From: Patescibacteria group bacterium
GTDB lineage: Bacteria; Patescibacteriota; Saccharimonadia; CAILAD01; BJGX01
Assembly (NCBI GenBank): GCA_030917065.1
Contig: JAUPVL010000042.1
Location: 2,419-26,418 of the forward strand
DNA length: 24,000 nucleotides
Reading direction: 5' to 3'
Positions 10,629 to 17,171 of this stretch are shown one piece after another (positions within the stretch are counted from its first letter, which is position 1; each line of letters starts with the position of its first letter). Under the pieces are notes generated by a model. It was given only the letters and a program-made list of their open reading frames with translations, did not search any database and was not told where the DNA came from. A program made the position numbers and the translations under genes.

Positions 10629-10856
10629 ATGGATAAAGATTTGGAGCGCACACTTGATGCCGAAGAACGGGCGGGATGTCTTGGTGTTTTGCAGTTTGTT
10701 GCCGCTATTGTTGCAACGGGTTGTGTACTTTTCGCCGATATCTGGTGGCTGACTCGTGTGGCTTATGTAGTTATTGCTATTGGTATGTGGCTGGGTGCAT
10801 GGCGCAATCTCACGAATCCATGGCGACTTATAGATCGTAAGGATAACAATGACTGA
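10629..10856 (+). CDS. Small two-helix membrane protein (75 aa), hypothetical
   Basis: SD AAGGAG with 7-nt spacing precedes ATG 10629. Two hydrophobic helices (CLGVLQFVAAIVATGCVLFA, VAYVVIAIGMWLGAW). Its stop overlaps the next start (ATGACTGA, 10849-10856), implying translational coupling. Confidence 0.55.
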   Translation: MDKDLERTLDAEERAGCLGVLQFVAAIVATGCVLFADIWWLTRVAYVVIAIGMWLGAWRNLTNPWRLIDRKDNND

Positions 10857-11226
10857 TCAAGAAAACCCGTCTTTTGATGATTGGGCAACTCGAGTGAAGC
10901 CCAGTGAGTACGCAGAGTATCTTGGAGGACACTTCCGTCGACCTTGGATGTCAAAAGTCGACCTAGCTGACCGAGCATTAATTGCATCTTTTCTAGAAAT
11001 GCAGATGCCTGATGGTCGTACTATCGCACATTGGTTGGATGAATTACCTGAGGCGGAGGACGAAATACGCCTCTTGCGGGCCGAGAACGAAGAAGCCCGC
11101 CATGCCATCAATGAGGCGCTTGGGTGTGCGTTCATTCATCACATGTGCGAATGCGGTGATACTGTGAATTGCGGTGTATGCCACATGGTTGCTCGGCTAC
11201 AGGCGTCGTCAGGGAGACAGTCCTAG
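10849..11226 (+). CDS. Hypothetical 125-aa protein with a C-terminal Cys/His cluster (putative Zn site)
   Basis: It overlaps the upstream ORF by 8 nt. It contains the acidic helix ELPEAEDEIRLLRAENEEARHAINEA followed by HHMCECGDTVNCGVCH. No family recognised. Confidence 0.5.
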   Translation: MTDQENPSFDDWATRVKPSEYAEYLGGHFRRPWMSKVDLADRALIASFLEMQMPDGRTIAHWLDELPEAEDEIRLLRAENEEARHAINEALGCAFIHHMCECGDTVNCGVCHMVARLQASSGRQS

Positions 11227-11360
11227 AATAAATATAGTCGTCAAAGAGTAGTAATATTTGGTCAGTAATGACCATCTAGCTCTTTGGCGGCGTCTATCTA
11301 AAACTTCTTAGTTTTACTGATGAGCTCTAGATAAGGGCGAAATAGACAAACAAAACAAAG

Positions 11361-11877: not shown

Positions 11878-11919
11878 GAGTAGAGTAGTAAAAATTATCT
11901 AATATATTGTTGACATATA

Positions 11920-11948
11920 TTGACAACAACCGAAAAACGTGCTACACT
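11920..11948 (+). promoter_or_regulatory. Promoter of the TrmB-like gene (probably a leaderless mRNA)
   Basis: TTGACA (11920-11925), a 17-nt spacer ending in TGc, then TACACT (11943-11948). ATG 11955 begins 6 nt after the -10 and there is no SD. A second TTGACA lies at 11910-11915. Confidence 0.55.
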
Positions 11949-11954
11949 AAGCAT

Positions 11955-12716
11955 ATGCAAATTATAGAACTAGCAACCAAACTCCAATCTGTTGGGCTTA
12001 GCGAAAAGCAAGCTCGAGTTTATGTTGCTGCACTGTTTTTGGGCCCTAGTGCCGTACAAAAGATCGCCGAGCAAGCCGAGATCAATCGAGCCACTACCTA
12101 TGTGATACTGGACGAACTGGCTGCTATGGGGCTAGTAAGCGAATCTACAGAAGGTAAGAAGACAGTATTTGTGGCCGAGCCACCTCAGTCGATTGAGCGC
12201 TACCTAGATGCACAGAACAAGCAGATATCTGATAAGCAAGACGAACTCAAGAACATCTTGCCTAGCCTCAAAGAAGTGTCGAGATCATCTGACGGAGTAG
12301 AGACTCCAGTAGTAAGGTTTTATAAGGGTATTGAGGGCTTAAGATCTAAGACTAGTATTTATGCTAGAAAAGCAAAACCAAAGAGTATGGTGTATGGATT
12401 TTCAAATTTCGATCAGGTATTAAAAGAATTTCCAGATATACTGCAATCTGGACCTAGTCTTAGGAGTAGAAAAAAAATATCGAGTAAATTAATCTATTCA
12501 CTTAGCGATGGCGAAATCAGATCTGACAAAAAACTGTTAAGAGAAACGAGAAAGATAGATCAACCTATCAGTGCAGACATCAATATATATGAAAATGCAG
12601 TTGTAATATCTACATACAAAGGCAAAGACTCCGTAGGTGTAGCTATCGAGAGCAAAGATATAGCTAGTGCCATGAAGCAATTATTTGAGATGGCCTGGAA
12701 AAATAGTAACAAATAG
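11955..12716 (+). CDS. TrmB-family (winged-helix) transcriptional regulator
   Basis: N-terminus LQSVGLSEKQARVYVAALFLGPSAVQKIAEQAEINRATTYVILDELAAMGLVSE is the TrmB-type HTH, followed by a coiled-coil (QNKQISDKQDELKNILPSL) and a C-terminal domain. I prefer ATG 11955 over track start 11907, which would overlap the promoter. Confidence 0.7.
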   Translation: MQIIELATKLQSVGLSEKQARVYVAALFLGPSAVQKIAEQAEINRATTYVILDELAAMGLVSESTEGKKTVFVAEPPQSIERYLDAQNKQISDKQDELKNILPSLKEVSRSSDGVETPVVRFYKGIEGLRSKTSIYARKAKPKSMVYGFSNFDQVLKEFPDILQSGPSLRSRKKISSKLIYSLSDGEIRSDKKLLRETRKIDQPISADINIYENAVVISTYKGKDSVGVAIESKDIASAMKQLFEMAWKNSNK

Positions 12717-12729
12717 TTGTTGCAATATA

Positions 12730-12758
12730 TTGACAAAATGTAAGTATTTTGGTATACT
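12730..12758 (+). promoter_or_regulatory. Near-consensus promoter with no gene behind it
   Basis: TTGACA (12730-12735), a 17-nt spacer ending in TGg, then TATACT (12753-12758). It starts 14 nt after the TrmB-like stop. Confidence 0.6.
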
Positions 12759-13058
12759 TCTCTTTGTCAGGCCAACGTACCATGTTTGAGTGATAGCTAA
12801 GACTCAGTCGAAAGAACGTCCAATGCTGCTTAAAACAGAGTGCAGAGGTCGCCGAGAAGTCCTCGGCATAGACACGAGCAATGGAGAGATACCGTGGACG
12901 CTGCCTTCTCCACCACCTGAACATTTCCGGCTCCGCCGGCGCAACCAACACATTTCTGACTGAACCCACGCGACGCAAGTCGTAGACACGAGCGAAAGCT
13001 CGCAACACCAAACGGTTCTGTCGGGAACTAACTGGACCAGTCATTGGTCCTTCGTCTA

Positions 13059-13095
13059 GGGCTCGGTGCCCCCGTAACTTGAGGGCACCGAGCCC
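13059..13095 (+). repeat. 13-bp hairpin related to hairpin b of the 3' T modules
   Basis: gggctcggtgccc (13059-13071) pairs with gggcaccgagccc (13083-13095). It shares the GGCYCG...CGRGCCC frame with 15324-15349 and 15930-15953. CTACA follows twice (13099-13103 and 13113-13117). Confidence 0.55.
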
Positions 13096-13116
13096 AGACT
13101 ACACTTCGATAACTAC

Positions 13117-13141
13117 AACCAGGCATTATGCCTGGTTTTTT
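13117..13141 (+). terminator. Intrinsic terminator ending the candidate ncRNA
   Basis: aaccaggca (13117-13125) pairs with tgcctggtt (13129-13137) and runs into a T6 tract (13136-13141). Confidence 0.75.
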
Positions 13142-13258
13142 CGTACAAAATGATACAAATAGCCAATTTAATGTAATTATTAATATATCTATGACACTAA
13201 ATACACGTGTTTTAACAGGTATAGAGCTATATAAATACAAATAAACTGACAAAAACTA

Positions 13259-13287
13259 TTGACAAGTTTTAATATATTTGCTATACT
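13259..13287 (+). promoter_or_regulatory. Near-consensus promoter of the second island unit
   Basis: TTGACA (13259-13264), a 17-nt spacer ending in TGc, then TATACT (13282-13287), inside an AT-rich spacer (13142-13330). Confidence 0.6.
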
Positions 13288-13339
13288 ACCAATCAGTTCT
13301 TTGAAGTGCCAATTTCCAAAACCTTTATAGGGGGATTCT

Positions 13340-13531
13340 GTGGCTAGCACGTTCACTCGCAAGTGTGGCATGGCCACTCGCACTCCTTCTGCCTTGACTT
13401 GGGCAGTCGTGGTCGAGTGCGGCAACGGGGAGGTGCACTACTTCGAACGTAGTGCTTGCCACCCCGACGCCGTCGTGGCGTACATCCAGCGGGAGTTTCC
13501 CGACTGTGACTACGTCATGGCTCTGGCCTAA
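13340..13531 (+). CDS. Hypothetical 63-aa protein with high-GC codon usage
   Basis: GTG start preceded by GGGGGA (13330-13335). GC3 is 47/63 (75%) with only 2 A-ending codons, a coding signature typical of a high-GC donor. No family recognised. An alternative ATG start lies at 13370 without an SD. Confidence 0.5.
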   Translation: MASTFTRKCGMATRTPSALTWAVVVECGNGEVHYFERSACHPDAVVAYIQREFPDCDYVMALA

Positions 13532-14441
13532 CGACTTCGGATCGGGGGCTTGATAAGTCCTGGCAACAGAAGCCTGTAGAGTGAGCAAAAAGAAGCTCTA
13601 TAGACACTATCCGAGTATGCTCTCGACAAAAGCCGCCTGGTAGTAGGCATTGAAGCCCGAGCAATCGAGCAACTACCAACCTCGTCTGATATATCAGACG
13701 AGGAGCAAGTCTGCTGGTAAAGTGCCAGCACTGATGAGCCCGAACTATCTAGTTCAACTAGGGCGAAACTGCACTTTGTAAATACTAATTCTGTGGATGT
13801 GGCCAGTGCTACATATTAAAACATACCAATAGCAGATTGGCCGCCCACAGAAATGGTAAATACAATATCCGAACCTTGTCATTATGAGCAGTAGCTTTCG
13901 AACCGAGTATATAGGTATATATATTTAGTTCGAAAGCTATGTGCTTTCAAAAAGATAGTAAGGTCACAGCAAATGGCGGGACTGCTGCCTCACTGATGAC
14001 CTGCCTGTAGTATGCGCGTTTCCCGACACGATCGGGCCGATGCATCTACGGGCGAAATCATGAACTGATATATATGAGAGTATATATCAGCTTCAACTGC
14101 TTGGGTGTCGCAGCTCTTCGTGAAAGCGGATGAGCGCCACCCGAGCAGGATATCGCTGCCACAACAATCTGGTCGGAGAGGCATCAACTTCGACGCACTG
14201 CTCAAAACGGCGTCAAGTCGGGTGAGAGTGGTGTTCTGCGTACGTCCTTCGCAGACAGTAGGGAGGTAATAATTGATCCGAGCCCGTGCAGAATCCTGCG
14301 CCGCAAACAACGCGACTCTGATAAGAGTGGGTAAAAAAAAGTCGGATCCGGGGACCCTAGTGGCCAATGATGATGTTCCTTCCCCGGTGCACGAGTGGGT
14401 GAAACCACGAGTGTTCATGAAAGGGAACGTCAAGCTCGCGG

Positions 14442-14484
14442 CAGCTCGTCGCTCTCCGTCAGTAGACGGATTGAGCGCAGCTGC
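14442..14484. repeat. Hairpin module H, copy 1 (43 nt)
   Basis: Sequence cagctcgtcgctctcc-gtcagtagac-gga-ttgagcgcagctgc. It folds as cagct/agctg + cgctc/gagcg + tccgtc/gacgga with loop agta. Confidence 0.7.
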
Positions 14485-15005
14485 CCATATTGCGGAACCC
14501 GTCCACGACCTTGCCAGTCGCCTGGTAAGATAGTAGATACGTTGTTCTGCGAGGTCTGAGTCAATCGCCACCCAAAAAGGTAACGTGGGGTTGAAACACC
14601 CCTGGCGGTAAGATCCCGAAAGAGCTGACGTAATGCTCGAAAAAATGTGCTAACATAGGCCTTTTTCCTTACGATAAAATTCAGATAGTCGTGAGGTCGT
14701 CCACCCCTTTGGGGTCCCACTAGTTGGGGCTCCGGAGGGTCTCAACAAGAGAGCTTGAATTATCAAGCTTTGCTGCTGAGACCCTAAAAAGTCTCGAACC
14801 TTGTCATTTGATGTTAAGATTTTGCTGGATGGAGCATAGAAGTGCAGATGTAATCCAGCTACTAGGGTGTCAGTGCGCACATAAGACCCCCTTCTGAGAA
14901 GTGACTAGAGTGGACTGCCCAAACGCAGACAGCTAGACAACTTTGTCAACTCAGATTAAACCAAAAAAAGCCGATAACGCTCCAATAATTCGGCCCATAT
15001 CGCGA

Positions 15006-15048
15006 CAGCTCGTCGCTCTCCAGAGTCATCTGGATCGAGCGCAGCTGC
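15006..15048. repeat. Hairpin module H, copy 2 (43 nt)
   Basis: Sequence cagctcgtcgctctcc-agagtcatct-gga-tcgagcgcagctgc. The outer arms match copy 1 except for one position. The inner stem is tccaga/tctgga, so three base pairs changed on both strands. It lies about 65 nt upstream of ATG 15114. Confidence 0.7.
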
Positions 15049-15113
15049 TAAATCCTTGAGTTTCAATCCCGCGACTCAAGCTCGTACCACACAACACCAC
15101 TGAAGGAGGTGAA

Positions 15114-15311
15114 ATGGACGAGACCAACGACCTCGACGGCATGATCCAGGCGGCGGATCTCATGCTCACGGTCATGATGGCCGAGGGCATGACCCCCGCA
15201 GAGATCTGCCTGGAGTTCTTCGCGATGGGCCACGAGAGTGGCCACATCTGCGCACAGGCGCACGAAGAGCCCCTCGAGGACGACCCCAAGGTGTCCGCCG
15301 GCTACCTGTAA
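15114..15311 (+). CDS. Hypothetical acidic 65-aa protein with very high GC3
   Basis: A perfect SD AAGGAGGTGA (15103-15112) precedes ATG 15114. GC3 is 60/65 (92%). Local GC is 36/60 at 15121-15180. No family recognised. Confidence 0.65.
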   Translation: MDETNDLDGMIQAADLMLTVMMAEGMTPAEICLEFFAMGHESGHICAQAHEEPLEDDPKVSAGYL

Positions 15312-15360
15312 GTGCCGGCACCCGGCCCGAATCTTCACAGATTCGGGCCCCTACCAAAGA
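15288..15360 (+). repeat. 3' module T, copy 1 (two hairpins + CTACC motifs)
   Basis: Sequence aaggtgtccgccggctacctgtaagtgccggcacccggcccgaatcttcacagattcgggcccctaccaaaga. Hairpin a is gccggc (15297-15302)/gccggc (15314-15319), with the ORF stop TAA in its loop. Hairpin b is ggcccgaatct (15324-15334)/agattcgggcc (15339-15349). CTACC occurs at 15302-15306 and 15351-15355. Confidence 0.7.
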
Positions 15361-15432
15361 AGGTTACAATATAATCTCTTTTGGTCGGGAAAGTCCCGAC
15401 TCACTCAGTGAGTAGCACCTTGGAGCAATCAA

Positions 15433-15885
15433 ATGGAAGATTTCAAAGAGTTGTTCGATCGGTTTCTGACCGTCGTGCGTGTGTCCAACGACATCCCTGA
15501 CGAGATGACTATCGAGGAGTTTCTGAGCAAGAAGTGGAACTTCTGCGACCCAAGCCCTTGCAACATGAGAGTGGAGGTCACTTGGGATGGCAGCTACTCC
15601 CTGTGGAGCCTTCGCTTCGACAGCACGGGTCGAGTCAACGATGAGCGCCTCTGGATCCGTCGCGACTGCACGCATGAGGAGGCCATCACCCAGGCCATCG
15701 GCCAAAATATGGGCGGCAACGTTGTCGAAATCTTGACCAAAGTCATCCCAGACATTCAGATGACCTCTGGGACTGGTGACGATTCGGAGGAGTTCTGGAT
15801 CGTTTGGGAGTGGTACAGCCCAATTTTCACCGGGAAGGAGGACAGTGGTCTGCAGGACGGAGATTGGCAAGAGGCCTTGCTCTAG
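15433..15885 (+). CDS. Hypothetical Trp-rich acidic 150-aa protein
   Basis: SD GGAG (15422-15425) with 7-nt spacing precedes ATG 15433. Third positions look mostly G/C by eye (not counted). Two tight 5' UTR hairpins lie at 15384-15400 and 15400-15412. It runs in the same direction as the flanking modules. The 187-aa antisense ORF 15364..15927 is treated as a shadow ORF. Confidence 0.6.
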   Translation: MEDFKELFDRFLTVVRVSNDIPDEMTIEEFLSKKWNFCDPSPCNMRVEVTWDGSYSLWSLRFDSTGRVNDERLWIRRDCTHEEAITQAIGQNMGGNVVEILTKVIPDIQMTSGTGDDSEEFWIVWEWYSPIFTGKEDSGLQDGDWQEALL

Positions 15886-15893
15886 AGAGTGCA

Positions 15894-15964
15894 AAGGTGA
15901 CCGCCGGCTACCTGTAAATGCCGGCACTCGGCTCGAGTCTTTTGACTCGAGCCCCTACCAAAGA
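15894..15964 (+). repeat. 3' module T, copy 2
   Basis: Sequence aaggtgaccgccggctacctgtaaatgccggcactcggctcgagtcttttgactcgagcccctaccaaaga. Hairpin a is conserved. Hairpin b is ggctcgagtc (15930-15939)/gactcgagcc (15944-15953), with two compensatory pair changes relative to copy 1. CTACC occurs at 15908-15912 and 15955-15959. Confidence 0.7.
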
Positions 15965-16007
15965 TATCAAGCACATTGATGCATTTGGTAAGAAATCAAT
16001 AATATAC

Positions 16008-16036
16008 TTGACATAAGAAGTTTAGTTTGGTATAAT
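16008..16036 (+). promoter_or_regulatory. Consensus promoter of the DHH-family gene
   Basis: TTGACA (16008-16013), a 17-nt spacer ending in TGg, then TATAAT (16031-16036). Confidence 0.6.
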
Positions 16037-16061
16037 ACTGCATTAATTAGACAAATTAGTT

Positions 16062-17171
16062 ATGCAACAAGAATTGACCCCCAAACAACAAACTGTAGAG
16101 CTTATCAAACAAGCCAACCACATACTGCTCGTTACTGGCAAAAACCCCAATAACGACCAGCTTAGTGCTATGGTAGCTCTGGAACTTATCCTGAAACGTG
16201 CAGGCAAACAAGTGAGTGCGATAGTCACTAGTGAACTACCCAAGGTAGCCAAGATACTAGACACCCACACCATTAGTAGAGATCTGACCGGTATAAGGGA
16301 TTTTGTAGTACGACTAGACACCACCAATGTAGAAGTAGACAAACTACGCTATGAGGTCAATGATAACAATATCGAAATAATAGTATCACCGTTTTCAGGC
16401 AATTTTACTTCCCAAGATGCTAGTTTTGACTACGGAGCATACAAATTTGACTTAGTGATAGTACTAGGAGTGAGCCAGATAGCACGTATAGACTCTATAC
16501 TCGAGCAAAACCCTACAATATTTGATGGGTTGCACTTGGTAAATATCGATTGCCATAGAAGCAACGAACAGTACGGTAGTGTGAACTTTGTAGACGCCGG
16601 TGCTAGTAGTGTTTGTGAGATGCTAGTAGGTATCATCGAGTCAGTTGCTCAAGGCATGATTGATTATCATGTAGCAACAGCATTACTTGCCGGTATCATG
16701 GGAGCAACTCAGGGATTTACAAATCAAAACACCTCTGCCAAGAGTCTTACTATAGCTGCCCAGATGATGAGTGGTGGTGCCAAGCAACAAGATATAGTCA
16801 ATACATTGTTTGCAGGGCAATCAAATACTGCCAACACTGAGAGCAATAGAGCTGATCGCAATAATGCCAAGACAGAGCTCAAATCACATCAATCAAAAAA
16901 TATCCGCAAAGATGAGCCAAAAGCACAAGAAACTATTGCCCAAAAACTAGCCAAACAAGGTATAGAGCTCACCGAAGAAGGTGTCGTAGATGCCAGGACA
17001 GGCAAGGTACTAGAAGAAGAAGTATTGGATGATGACTTGGACAAAATAAACGATGGGGATGAGCAGAGCTCAAAAAAGTTCAAAAATCCGCAAGCGGATC
17101 AGTCGCACCAGGAAACTTCAAGGGCAAATACACATCAGCAGGCATCCAAGGGCTCTAAAAAAAACCGATAA
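16062..17171 (+). CDS. NrnA-like DHH-domain protein with degenerate catalytic motifs and a low-complexity C-terminal tail
   Basis: It is collinear with B. subtilis NrnA (recalled from memory), but key residues are replaced. ILLVTGKNPNNDQLSAM stands where NrnA has HRHVRPDPDAYGS. VIVLGVSQ replaces VIVCDTAN, NIDCHRSN replaces KIDHHPNE, and GIMGATQGF replaces GIVGDTGRF. There is no DHHA1 GGGH domain; about 130 residues of K/Q/E/N-rich tail take its place. Confidence 0.6.
   Translation: MQQELTPKQQTVELIKQANHILLVTGKNPNNDQLSAMVALELILKRAGKQVSAIVTSELPKVAKILDTHTISRDLTGIRDFVVRLDTTNVEVDKLRYEVNDNNIEIIVSPFSGNFTSQDASFDYGAYKFDLVIVLGVSQIARIDSILEQNPTIFDGLHLVNIDCHRSNEQYGSVNFVDAGASSVCEMLVGIIESVAQGMIDYHVATALLAGIMGATQGFTNQNTSAKSLTIAAQMMSGGAKQQDIVNTLFAGQSNTANTESNRADRNNAKTELKSHQSKNIRKDEPKAQETIAQKLAKQGIELTEEGVVDARTGKVLEEEVLDDDLDKINDGDEQSSKKFKNPQADQSHQETSRANTHQQASKGSKKNR

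Follow-up and report, generated by a model that had tools for sequence, protein, structure and literature searches.

Structured repeats that accompany small genes have been described in several systems. The attC sites of sedentary chromosomal integrons (e.g. the Vibrio cholerae repeats) follow small, promoterless orphan open reading frames (ORFs) of one orientation; their structure is conserved over their sequence, the repeats within a genome are alike, and the cassette content varies between strains. RNase III hairpins in the early mRNA of phage T7, as well as operon-internal stabiliser stem-loops, lie between the cistrons of a read-through polycistronic RNA. Repetitive extragenic palindromes and bacterial interspersed mosaic elements (REP/BIME) are transcribed intergenic palindromes at the 3' ends of genes, which stabilise the upstream mRNA and can promote rearrangements, and intrinsic as well as hairpin-only ('I-shaped') terminators place a GC-rich hairpin at 3' ends. 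Each of these systems shares traits with module T, a structured repeat present in two copies, T1 and T2, in a 24,000-nt stretch of contig JAUPVL010000042.1 (positions 2,419 to 26,418, assembly GCA_030917065.1), hereafter the window. The window, of about 41% GC, belongs to a Saccharibacteria-like (Patescibacteria) genome recurring in activated-sludge metagenomes; Saccharibacteria are ultra-small bacteria.

T1 and T2 lie in an island of higher GC content (50-55%, about 12720-16003) flanked by genes for a TrmB-like regulator and a DHH phosphoesterase. Here promoter P2 is followed by ORF0, a hammerhead ribozyme, about 1.3 kb of conserved non-coding sequence, ORF1, T1, ORF2 and T2. T is a structured RNA motif with good covariation support and is a variant of the known intergenic structured repeats; no description of T or of this locus was found in the literature. 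We tentatively favour the reading, at somewhat less than an even chance, that T is a sense-strand RNA punctuation module serving processing and stabilisation, whose repeats also drive the shuffling of cassettes.

Structure, strand and placement of module T

T1 (15288-15399) and T2 (15894 to about 15992) are two copies of one module composed of hairpin a, hairpin b and helix X, to which hairpin hc is added if an ORF comes next (Table 1). Exactly two occurrences of the 27-nt core CCGCCGGCTACCTGTAANTGCCGGCAC lie in the window (at 15295 and 15901), against none expected from shuffles. A repeat finder matched 15288-15335 with 15894-15941 and 15340-15360 with 15944-15964, both at 90% identity, and in a MAFFT alignment the homology of T1 and T2 runs from AAGGTG to CCAAAGA. 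Fold z-scores against shuffles are -4.8 for T1 and -5.8 for T2. The arms of hairpin b read GGCCCGAATCT/AGATTCGGGCC in T1 and GGCTCGAGTC/GACTCGAGCC in T2, two pairs being changed on both sides. No U tract follows either window copy or any other copy inspected. Searches of Rfam gave no match over T at the gathering threshold; at E<=10 the only overlap was a chance-level match to Acido-1 on the minus strand (17.9 bits, E 3.3).

Much of this agrees with the preliminary description, which was made from the letters of the window. Its two blocks, the identical GCCGGC/GCCGGC stem of hairpin a, the two compensatory changes that keep hairpin b paired, and the lack of a U tract were all recovered. The stop codon of ORF1 (15309-15311) does sit in the hairpin a loop of T1, and the codons of the ORF1 end recur in T2 from 15894, 8 nt after the TAG of ORF2 (15883-15885) and out of frame. 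A sequencing frameshift, considered near 15880-15900, is excluded by nine independent assemblies that are 99.95-100% identical over the region. The supposed third relative at 13059-13095 is a real hairpin of 13 bp that gave no match to the covariance model even at E<=10; in four relatives it is an invariant part of the small RNA driven by promoter P1, with a normal terminator after it. The repeated CTACC, noted in both window copies, is not conserved, the tail of most copies reading CCAACC, and no true compensatory change was seen in hairpin a.

Helix X and hc did not figure in that description. The module extends further 3', where CCUACCAAAG and a downstream (C)UUUUGGU form helix X, taking T1 to 15389 (15399 with hc). 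Across the related loci, a CCNACCARAG tail and a CUYUUGGUNGG downstream of it are paired in every case, over an AU-rich loop of 14-20 nt, often with a mini-hairpin. The 3' strand of X runs into the conserved hc (GGUCGGGAAAGUCCCGA), after which the ribosome-binding site follows. Hairpin hc is present only where a cassette ORF follows and is absent before a promoter or an RNA gene; T2 is of the terminal type, without hc and with promoter P3 next. As a separate observation, another small hairpin stands past hc in the 5' untranslated region of ORF2; it reads CUCACUCAGUGAG in the window (15400-15412) and UUCACUCUAGAGUGAG in the L261 homologue (34-48), the stem being kept in both.

Related loci (designated by L numbers) were obtained by exact-protein look-ups with ORF2 and a 60%-identical homologue of ORF1; further loci came from species-representative genomes, anchored on polynucleotide phosphorylase (PNPase), and from DHH homologues of 63-93% identity. 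They yielded 23 distinct copies of T from about ten related Saccharibacteria lineages. A covariance model, R1, was built from hairpin b and X. With 20 distinct copies aligned to R1, 92% of the cells are paired. For hairpin b the value is 99%, with nine of the ten pairs changed on both sides, so that the further copies, in which non-compensatory variation would have counted against the module, vary in a compensatory manner. For X the value is 87%, with three pairs changed on both sides and five invariant (ACCA/UGGU and neighbours). None of 500 shuffles reached the observed pairing values, slid controls collapsed, and RNAalifold recovered hairpin b and X independently. The raw sequences themselves show more than ten hairpin b stems that are unrelated to one another and each perfectly paired. 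Hairpin a is nearly invariant, the only exceptions being L262, where a double C-to-U change leaves G.U pairs, and L091, where the outer pair is lost; the hairpin is consistent with the structure, not proven by covariation.

The fold of the plus strand is the more stable one in 20 of the 23 copies, the mean difference being -5.5 kcal/mol. It contains 58 G.U pairs versus 15 on the minus strand, and a G.U pair in X is conserved in 13 of 20 copies. The structure of T is under selection, acting in the sense strand.

The last seven codons of ORF1 (KVSAGYL) lie in hairpin a. This C-terminus is invariant in six of six homologues, and the preceding residues vary. The AlphaFold model of ORF1 is of low confidence (predicted local distance difference test, pLDDT, 62), and the unstructured residues 50-54 and 56-65, with pLDDT below 50, form a tail that takes in the seven codons. 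Since the C-terminus is invariant yet lies in the unstructured tail of a weak model, a constraint at the nucleotide level is a reasonable explanation of its conservation; the proposal of a portable structured 3' module, as opposed to protein-level conservation, is supported.

In a search of both strands of about 307 kb, drawn from about 20 related loci, R1 gave strong matches (33-79 bits) on the sense strand only and in this island only, except for one copy in the more distant genome L013, upstream of rpsO and between it and a GC-rich ORF. In the window it matched only T1 (65 bits) and T2 (75 bits). T has the orientation of the genes in all copies. It follows ORF1, ORF2 and its low-GC homologues, one lipoprotein cassette, two membrane-protein cassettes and two further orphan ORFs. 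It also stands after tRNA-Lys in L011 and L262, and in L261 it precedes a Lys-Gln-Glu tRNA cluster, with a weaker X-type hairpin after the cluster (tRNA-Glu); a weaker X-type variant follows the transfer-messenger RNA (tmRNA) in L262. In L011 and L012 T sits at the 3' end of the large RNA led by the hammerhead; there a canonical terminator lies about 70 nt beyond T, which places T inside the transcript. A position after small accessory ORFs, put up for checking at the outset, thus does not hold for all copies. Since T follows ORFs, tRNA and the large non-coding RNA (ncRNA), it marks unit boundaries in general, in a locus of stable RNA genes mixed with small ORFs, and is not limited to the tails of accessory ORFs. 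It is kept across lineages whose DHH proteins are only 63-72% and whose PNPases are 59% identical. The exact 23-nt pattern of hairpin a had no match in the genome contigs. Among the matches listed, a metagenome scan with the hc pattern gave one true locus (L163), the rest being chance, and three scans of viral contigs (hc, a hairpin b/tail segment and a large-RNA motif) gave chance matches or nothing, with no sign of a phage carrier.

The cassettes encode small orphan proteins, lipoproteins and membrane proteins among them, in a set that varies between strains, and the arrays of close relatives hold one to four cassettes. The array reads ORF1-T in L257 and L259, ORF1-T-ORF2-T in the window, ORF1-T-lipoprotein-T-ORF165-T-ORF112-T in L253, L254 and L255, and ORF165-T-ORF2-T in L096; in L264 the site is empty, with a gap of 70 nt between the TrmB and DHH genes. 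A comparison with L257 shows the ORF2 cassette to be an indel, with T1 and T2 as 72-nt direct repeats on its two sides. L095 is without the lipoprotein cassette of L091, the junction lying inside a 57-nt repeat, and in L096, where ORF2 comes after a different cassette, homology to the window begins exactly at the 3' strand of X. These breakpoints show the exchange of cassettes and uphold the likeness to a gene-cassette array noted at the outset. The loops of X are similar within a genome and different between genomes, and the likeness within genomes suggests gene conversion. In L004 the island is 99-100% identical to the window (14350-16100), with flanking genes at 75-82%, which points to a recent recombinational transfer of the island between strains; nearly all differences between the two lie in hairpin b of T2, as paired changes. 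Homologous recombination between the 57-72-nt repeats is enough for all of the observed rearrangements.

Function of the module and competing readings

Beyond P1, P2 and P3 the promoter scans found no consensus promoter, and the stretch after P2 up to the last cassette is free of them in the window, L253 and L091 alike; P2 is the sole strong promoter upstream of all units from ORF0 to T2. Because the downstream cassettes have no promoter of their own, internal copies of T must allow read-through and cannot be strong terminators. Punctuation at the RNA level is argued for by the sense-strand structure, by the position of T behind genes of every kind in a transcript that is read through, and by the ribozyme-processed context. 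It is further argued for by the adjoining of a generic stable hairpin and a sequence-conserved one, and by the occurrence of the 5' hairpin only before ORFs.

In the proposed mechanism one long composite transcript would run from P2 through ORF0, the hammerhead, the large ncRNA, ORF1 and the cassettes, and in relatives also through tmRNA and tRNA genes. T would act in it as a row of adjacent hairpins: an optional a, a GC-rich b of any sequence, a long AU-rich X with a base conserved in sequence (ACCARAG/CUYUUGGU), and hc before an ORF. An endoribonuclease, either a double-strand-specific one of the RNase III type or a dedicated enzyme, would recognise and cut X or the adjoining region. Hairpin b would then be left as a 3' cap protecting the upstream RNA from 3'-to-5' exonucleases, and hc would become a 5'-terminal stem shielding the downstream mRNA from 5'-end-dependent decay. 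A module of 60-100 nt after every unit would at the same time supply the homology for deletion, duplication and swapping of cassettes between strains. The adjacent helices of 10-11 bp and 13-16 bp between cistrons fit an intercistronic processing site of the RNase III type. The structure, placement and breakpoints of T are shown by the data, whereas cleavage and stabilisation we infer. A gene for PNPase lies in the window, with an RNase J gene just downstream on the same contig (L001). If T is a true processing signal, it shows how a bacterium with a reduced genome cuts one transcript into stable RNAs and mRNAs.

Several points weigh against this reading. Cleavage at T is a matter of pure inference, and X, with only 13-16 bp, is short for classical RNase III. 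R1 found no match in about 270 kb of flanking Saccharibacteria DNA, where the signal of a housekeeping nuclease would be expected too. The alignment used for the pair counts was fitted to the model R1. The conserved sequences of X, hc and the hairpin a loop would also suit a sequence-specific protein or a recombinase. Finally, terminal copies stand directly before P3 with no canonical terminator, in positions where L267 has canonical terminators, so that some termination activity at terminal copies is plausible.

That T as such is a hairpin-only, factor-dependent or partial terminator (attenuator) is unlikely. Hairpin b, perhaps with X, would then stop or pause RNA polymerase, insulate the DHH gene and set up a decreasing gradient of cassette expression. 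It is indeed strong, GC-rich and placed at the 3' ends of genes, and the last copy of T always comes just before P3 with nothing else terminating between. L267, which is without the island, carries the same canonical terminator twice (7203 and 8882), GCCACCAGA-gaga-TCTGGTGGC plus a U tract, with a stem that resembles the core of X and sits where T sits elsewhere; the terminator of the neighbouring small RNA also has an X-like stem, AACCAGGC/GCCTGGTT. However, not a U tract but CCUACCAAAG follows hairpin b, and the absence of a U tract extends to every copy, whereas ordinary U-tract terminators are used elsewhere in the same locus, one nearby at 13117-13145. A terminator scan lists neither hairpin b as a hairpin plus T run, giving only a weak 5-bp match at 15926-15938 that overlaps the 5' arm of hairpin b in T2. 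The promoterless cassettes past internal copies need read-through, which makes the simple terminator considered in the preliminary description unlikely for those copies; after the T of the large RNA there is still a canonical terminator; and the conserved sequences of X, hc and the hairpin a loop would be left unexplained.

An attC-like recombination site, of which a recombinase encoded elsewhere would recognise the folded top strand or the inverted repeat of X, is distinctly unlikely, although several features speak for it. Promoterless small orphan ORFs of the same orientation are each followed by a structured repeat with conserved base and variable apex, and the repeats are homogenised within genomes and differ between lineages. 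Close strains carry one to four cassettes, one and the same cassette can be found in differing contexts, its breakpoints falling inside the module, and the island can be nearly identical where its flanks are not, as in L004. The cassettes are also GC-rich (GC content at third codon positions, GC3, 0.7-0.9, in a genome of 41% GC). Yet homologous recombination between the repeats can account for all of the observed rearrangements. No integrase or recombinase was seen among the scanned ORFs of the window or the called genes of the flanks of about 10 kb in more than ten related loci. The attC cores RYYYAAC/GTTRRRY are absent, the window copies having CCTACC and GGTCGGG or GGTAAGA, and X measures only about 40-45 nt. 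T also stands after tRNA genes and the large ncRNA, which are fixed and not mobile, and the many G.U pairs favour RNA. If T were a true recombination site, it would be a new cassette system. A more speculative and improbable version takes the T copies as the crossover sites of a cassette-capture system without a neighbouring integrase, a functional counterpart of the integron in bacteria of the Candidate Phyla Radiation. Its recombination or processing activity would be supplied by a factor encoded elsewhere or by the hammerhead-led 1.3-kb RNA together with the ORF1 protein, and T would define cassette ends in both DNA and transcript.

It is also improbable that T is a binding platform for a factor encoded in the island, be it the ORF1 protein or the large RNA with its hammerhead, and has a role in regulation or in the assembly of a ribonucleoprotein in place of one as nuclease signal. 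Such a role would suit the sequence conservation of the hairpin a loop, the X core and hc, the confinement of the module to this locus, and ORF1 as the one ORF always present and overlapping hairpin a. Complementarity between T and the upstream RNAs, however, is no greater than in shuffled controls, ORF1 has no match among the known nucleic-acid-binding families and only a low-confidence structure model, and L011 and L012 carry T without ORF1.

That T is a functionless duplicated 3' end, a neutral relic of the duplication that made the array, is very improbable: T1 and T2 do flank the ORF2 indel as direct repeats and hairpin a carries a piece of ORF1 coding sequence, but the persistence of T over the diverged lineages and above all the many entirely different, perfectly paired stems of hairpin b bring this close to refuted.

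Other candidates were tried and rejected: a tRNA-like minihelix, in which a stacked helix of about 12 bp would pass directly into single-stranded 3' NCCA (the invariant ACCA lies 3-9 nt from hairpin b and is base-paired within X), a CRISPR repeat or a self-cleaving ribozyme (on their defining features), and an internal promoter in the loop of X (on the promoter scans).

The island and its other features

The features of the island and its neighbours are listed in Table 1. Its three near-consensus promoters start at 12730 (P1), 13259 (P2) and 16008 (P3).

Table 1. Components of T1 and T2 and other features of the island, in window coordinates
Feature	Position	Strand	Remarks
T1 hairpin a	15288..15323	+	Stem 15297-15302/15314-15319 (GCCGGC/GCCGGC), 11-nt loop UACCUGUAAGU; left module edge AAGGTG at 15288
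T1 hairpin b	15324..15349	+	GGCCCGAAUCU/AGAUUCGGGCC, 11 bp, loop UCAC
T1 helix X	15350..15389	+	5' strand CCUACCAAAG 15350-15359; AU-rich loop 15360-15377; 3' strand CUUUUGGUCGGG 15378-15389
Hairpin hc	15385..15399	+	UCGGG AAAGU CCCGA; overlaps outer part of X 3' strand
T2 hairpin a	15894..15929	+	Stem 15903-15908/15920-15925; repeats ORF1 C-terminal codons out of frame with ORF2
T2 hairpin b	15930..15953	+	GGCUCGAGUC/GACUCGAGCC, 10 bp, loop UUUU
T2 helix X	15954..15992	+	UACCAAA 15956-15962 pairs with UUUGGUA 15984-15990; loop mini-hairpin AUCAA/UUGAU
ORF1	15114..15311	+	65 aa, strong ribosome-binding site; conserved first ORF after the large ncRNA
ORF2 cassette	15433..15885	+	150-aa orphan protein; absent in L257 and L259
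Type III hammerhead ribozyme	13704..13773	+	5' side of the large ncRNA; RF00008, 29.8 bits, under gathering score
Large ncRNA	13774..15113	+	About 1-1.3 kb, GC-rich, conserved; no Rfam match
Promoter P2	13259..13287	+	TTGACA-17-TATACT with TG
Promoter P3 of DHH gene	16008..16036	+	Starts about 16 nt past T2 end; right island edge
Promoter P1	12730-12758		Consensus; drives the small RNA listed next
Small RNA of about 380 nt	12760-13145		Own promoter P1 and canonical terminator 13117-13145; no Rfam match
TrmB-like regulator gene	11907-12716		Left neighbour of the island
DHH phosphoesterase gene	16062-17171		Right neighbour of the island; driven by P3

The hammerhead of the large RNA reaches 43.9 bits in L012, and its stems I, II and III covary over eight lineages. 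Together, hammerhead and large RNA look like an undescribed class of large ncRNA, the 5' end of which would be set by self-cleavage. The island with this hammerhead-led RNA and the cassette array is a more notable object than the T motif alone, and under either reading of T, as processing signal or as recombination site, the covariance model is a handle for finding the whole island and the large RNA in metagenomes. All relatives with the island keep the small RNA of P1 at the same position.

A second type III hammerhead candidate lies at 11291-11348 on the plus strand (RF00008, 35 bits, E 4e-6 in a 301-nt search, under the gathering score), 3' of the ORF at 10849-11226 and convergent with rpsT; it has an orthologue in L091 at about 1870-1930. 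The 14-nt string CCTGGCAACAGAAG is found in the leader after ORF0 (window 13560-13574) and inside the tmRNA genes of related genomes (L012 at about 4503, L011 at about 4990, L262 at about 5521 and about 7470); in the relatives that carry it there, the tmRNA gene lies within the same island.

For ORF1, ORF2 and eight other cassette proteins no relatives were found in Pfam, PHROG or the Protein Data Bank (PDB). The ORF2 family is tiny, with seven clusters among 1.8 billion representatives; residues 43-89 of ORF2 match nine repeats within a protein of 1577 aa (P0125). ORF1 has an invariant GH(E/D)SGHxCA motif, which is possibly metal-binding.

Comparison with known systems

Promoterless cassettes of one orientation and strain-variable content, a feature of integrons, are found at this locus. 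Neither of the attC cores, R'' and R' with their invariant AAC/GTT, is present, however: T1 and T2 read CCCTACC...GGTCGGG and GGTAAGA, all junctions of the hc type have GTC and not the GTT of attC, and only some copies in relatives show CCCAAC...GTTGGG. No intI, attI or cassette promoter Pc adjoins the array, the head of which is formed by P2, ORF0, the hammerhead and the large RNA. An attC site is one imperfect hairpin of 57-141 nt whose bottom strand is active, whereas T is a row of three to four separate hairpins with the better fold, rich in G.U pairs, on the top (sense) strand. Unlike attC, T also stands after tRNA and ncRNA genes.

REPs are spread genome-wide in hundreds of copies and both orientations; T has a different architecture and was found in one island only, always in one orientation. 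A classification of T as REP/BIME was rejected, as R1 finds no dispersed copies in the DNA searched.

With intrinsic and I-shaped terminators T has in common the GC-rich hairpin, and the terminal T takes the position of the canonical terminator of L267. It differs from them in the missing U tract, in the read-through of its internal copies and in its additional sequence-conserved parts (X, hc and the hairpin a loop).

Compared with RNase III hairpins, X is shorter than the typical substrates, its base is conserved in sequence, T belongs to one locus, and cleavage in T is a proposed step. By analogy with the hairpins of the T7 early mRNA, the upstream RNA would keep a hairpin at its 3' end after a cut at T, and the downstream RNA would begin with a structured 5' end.

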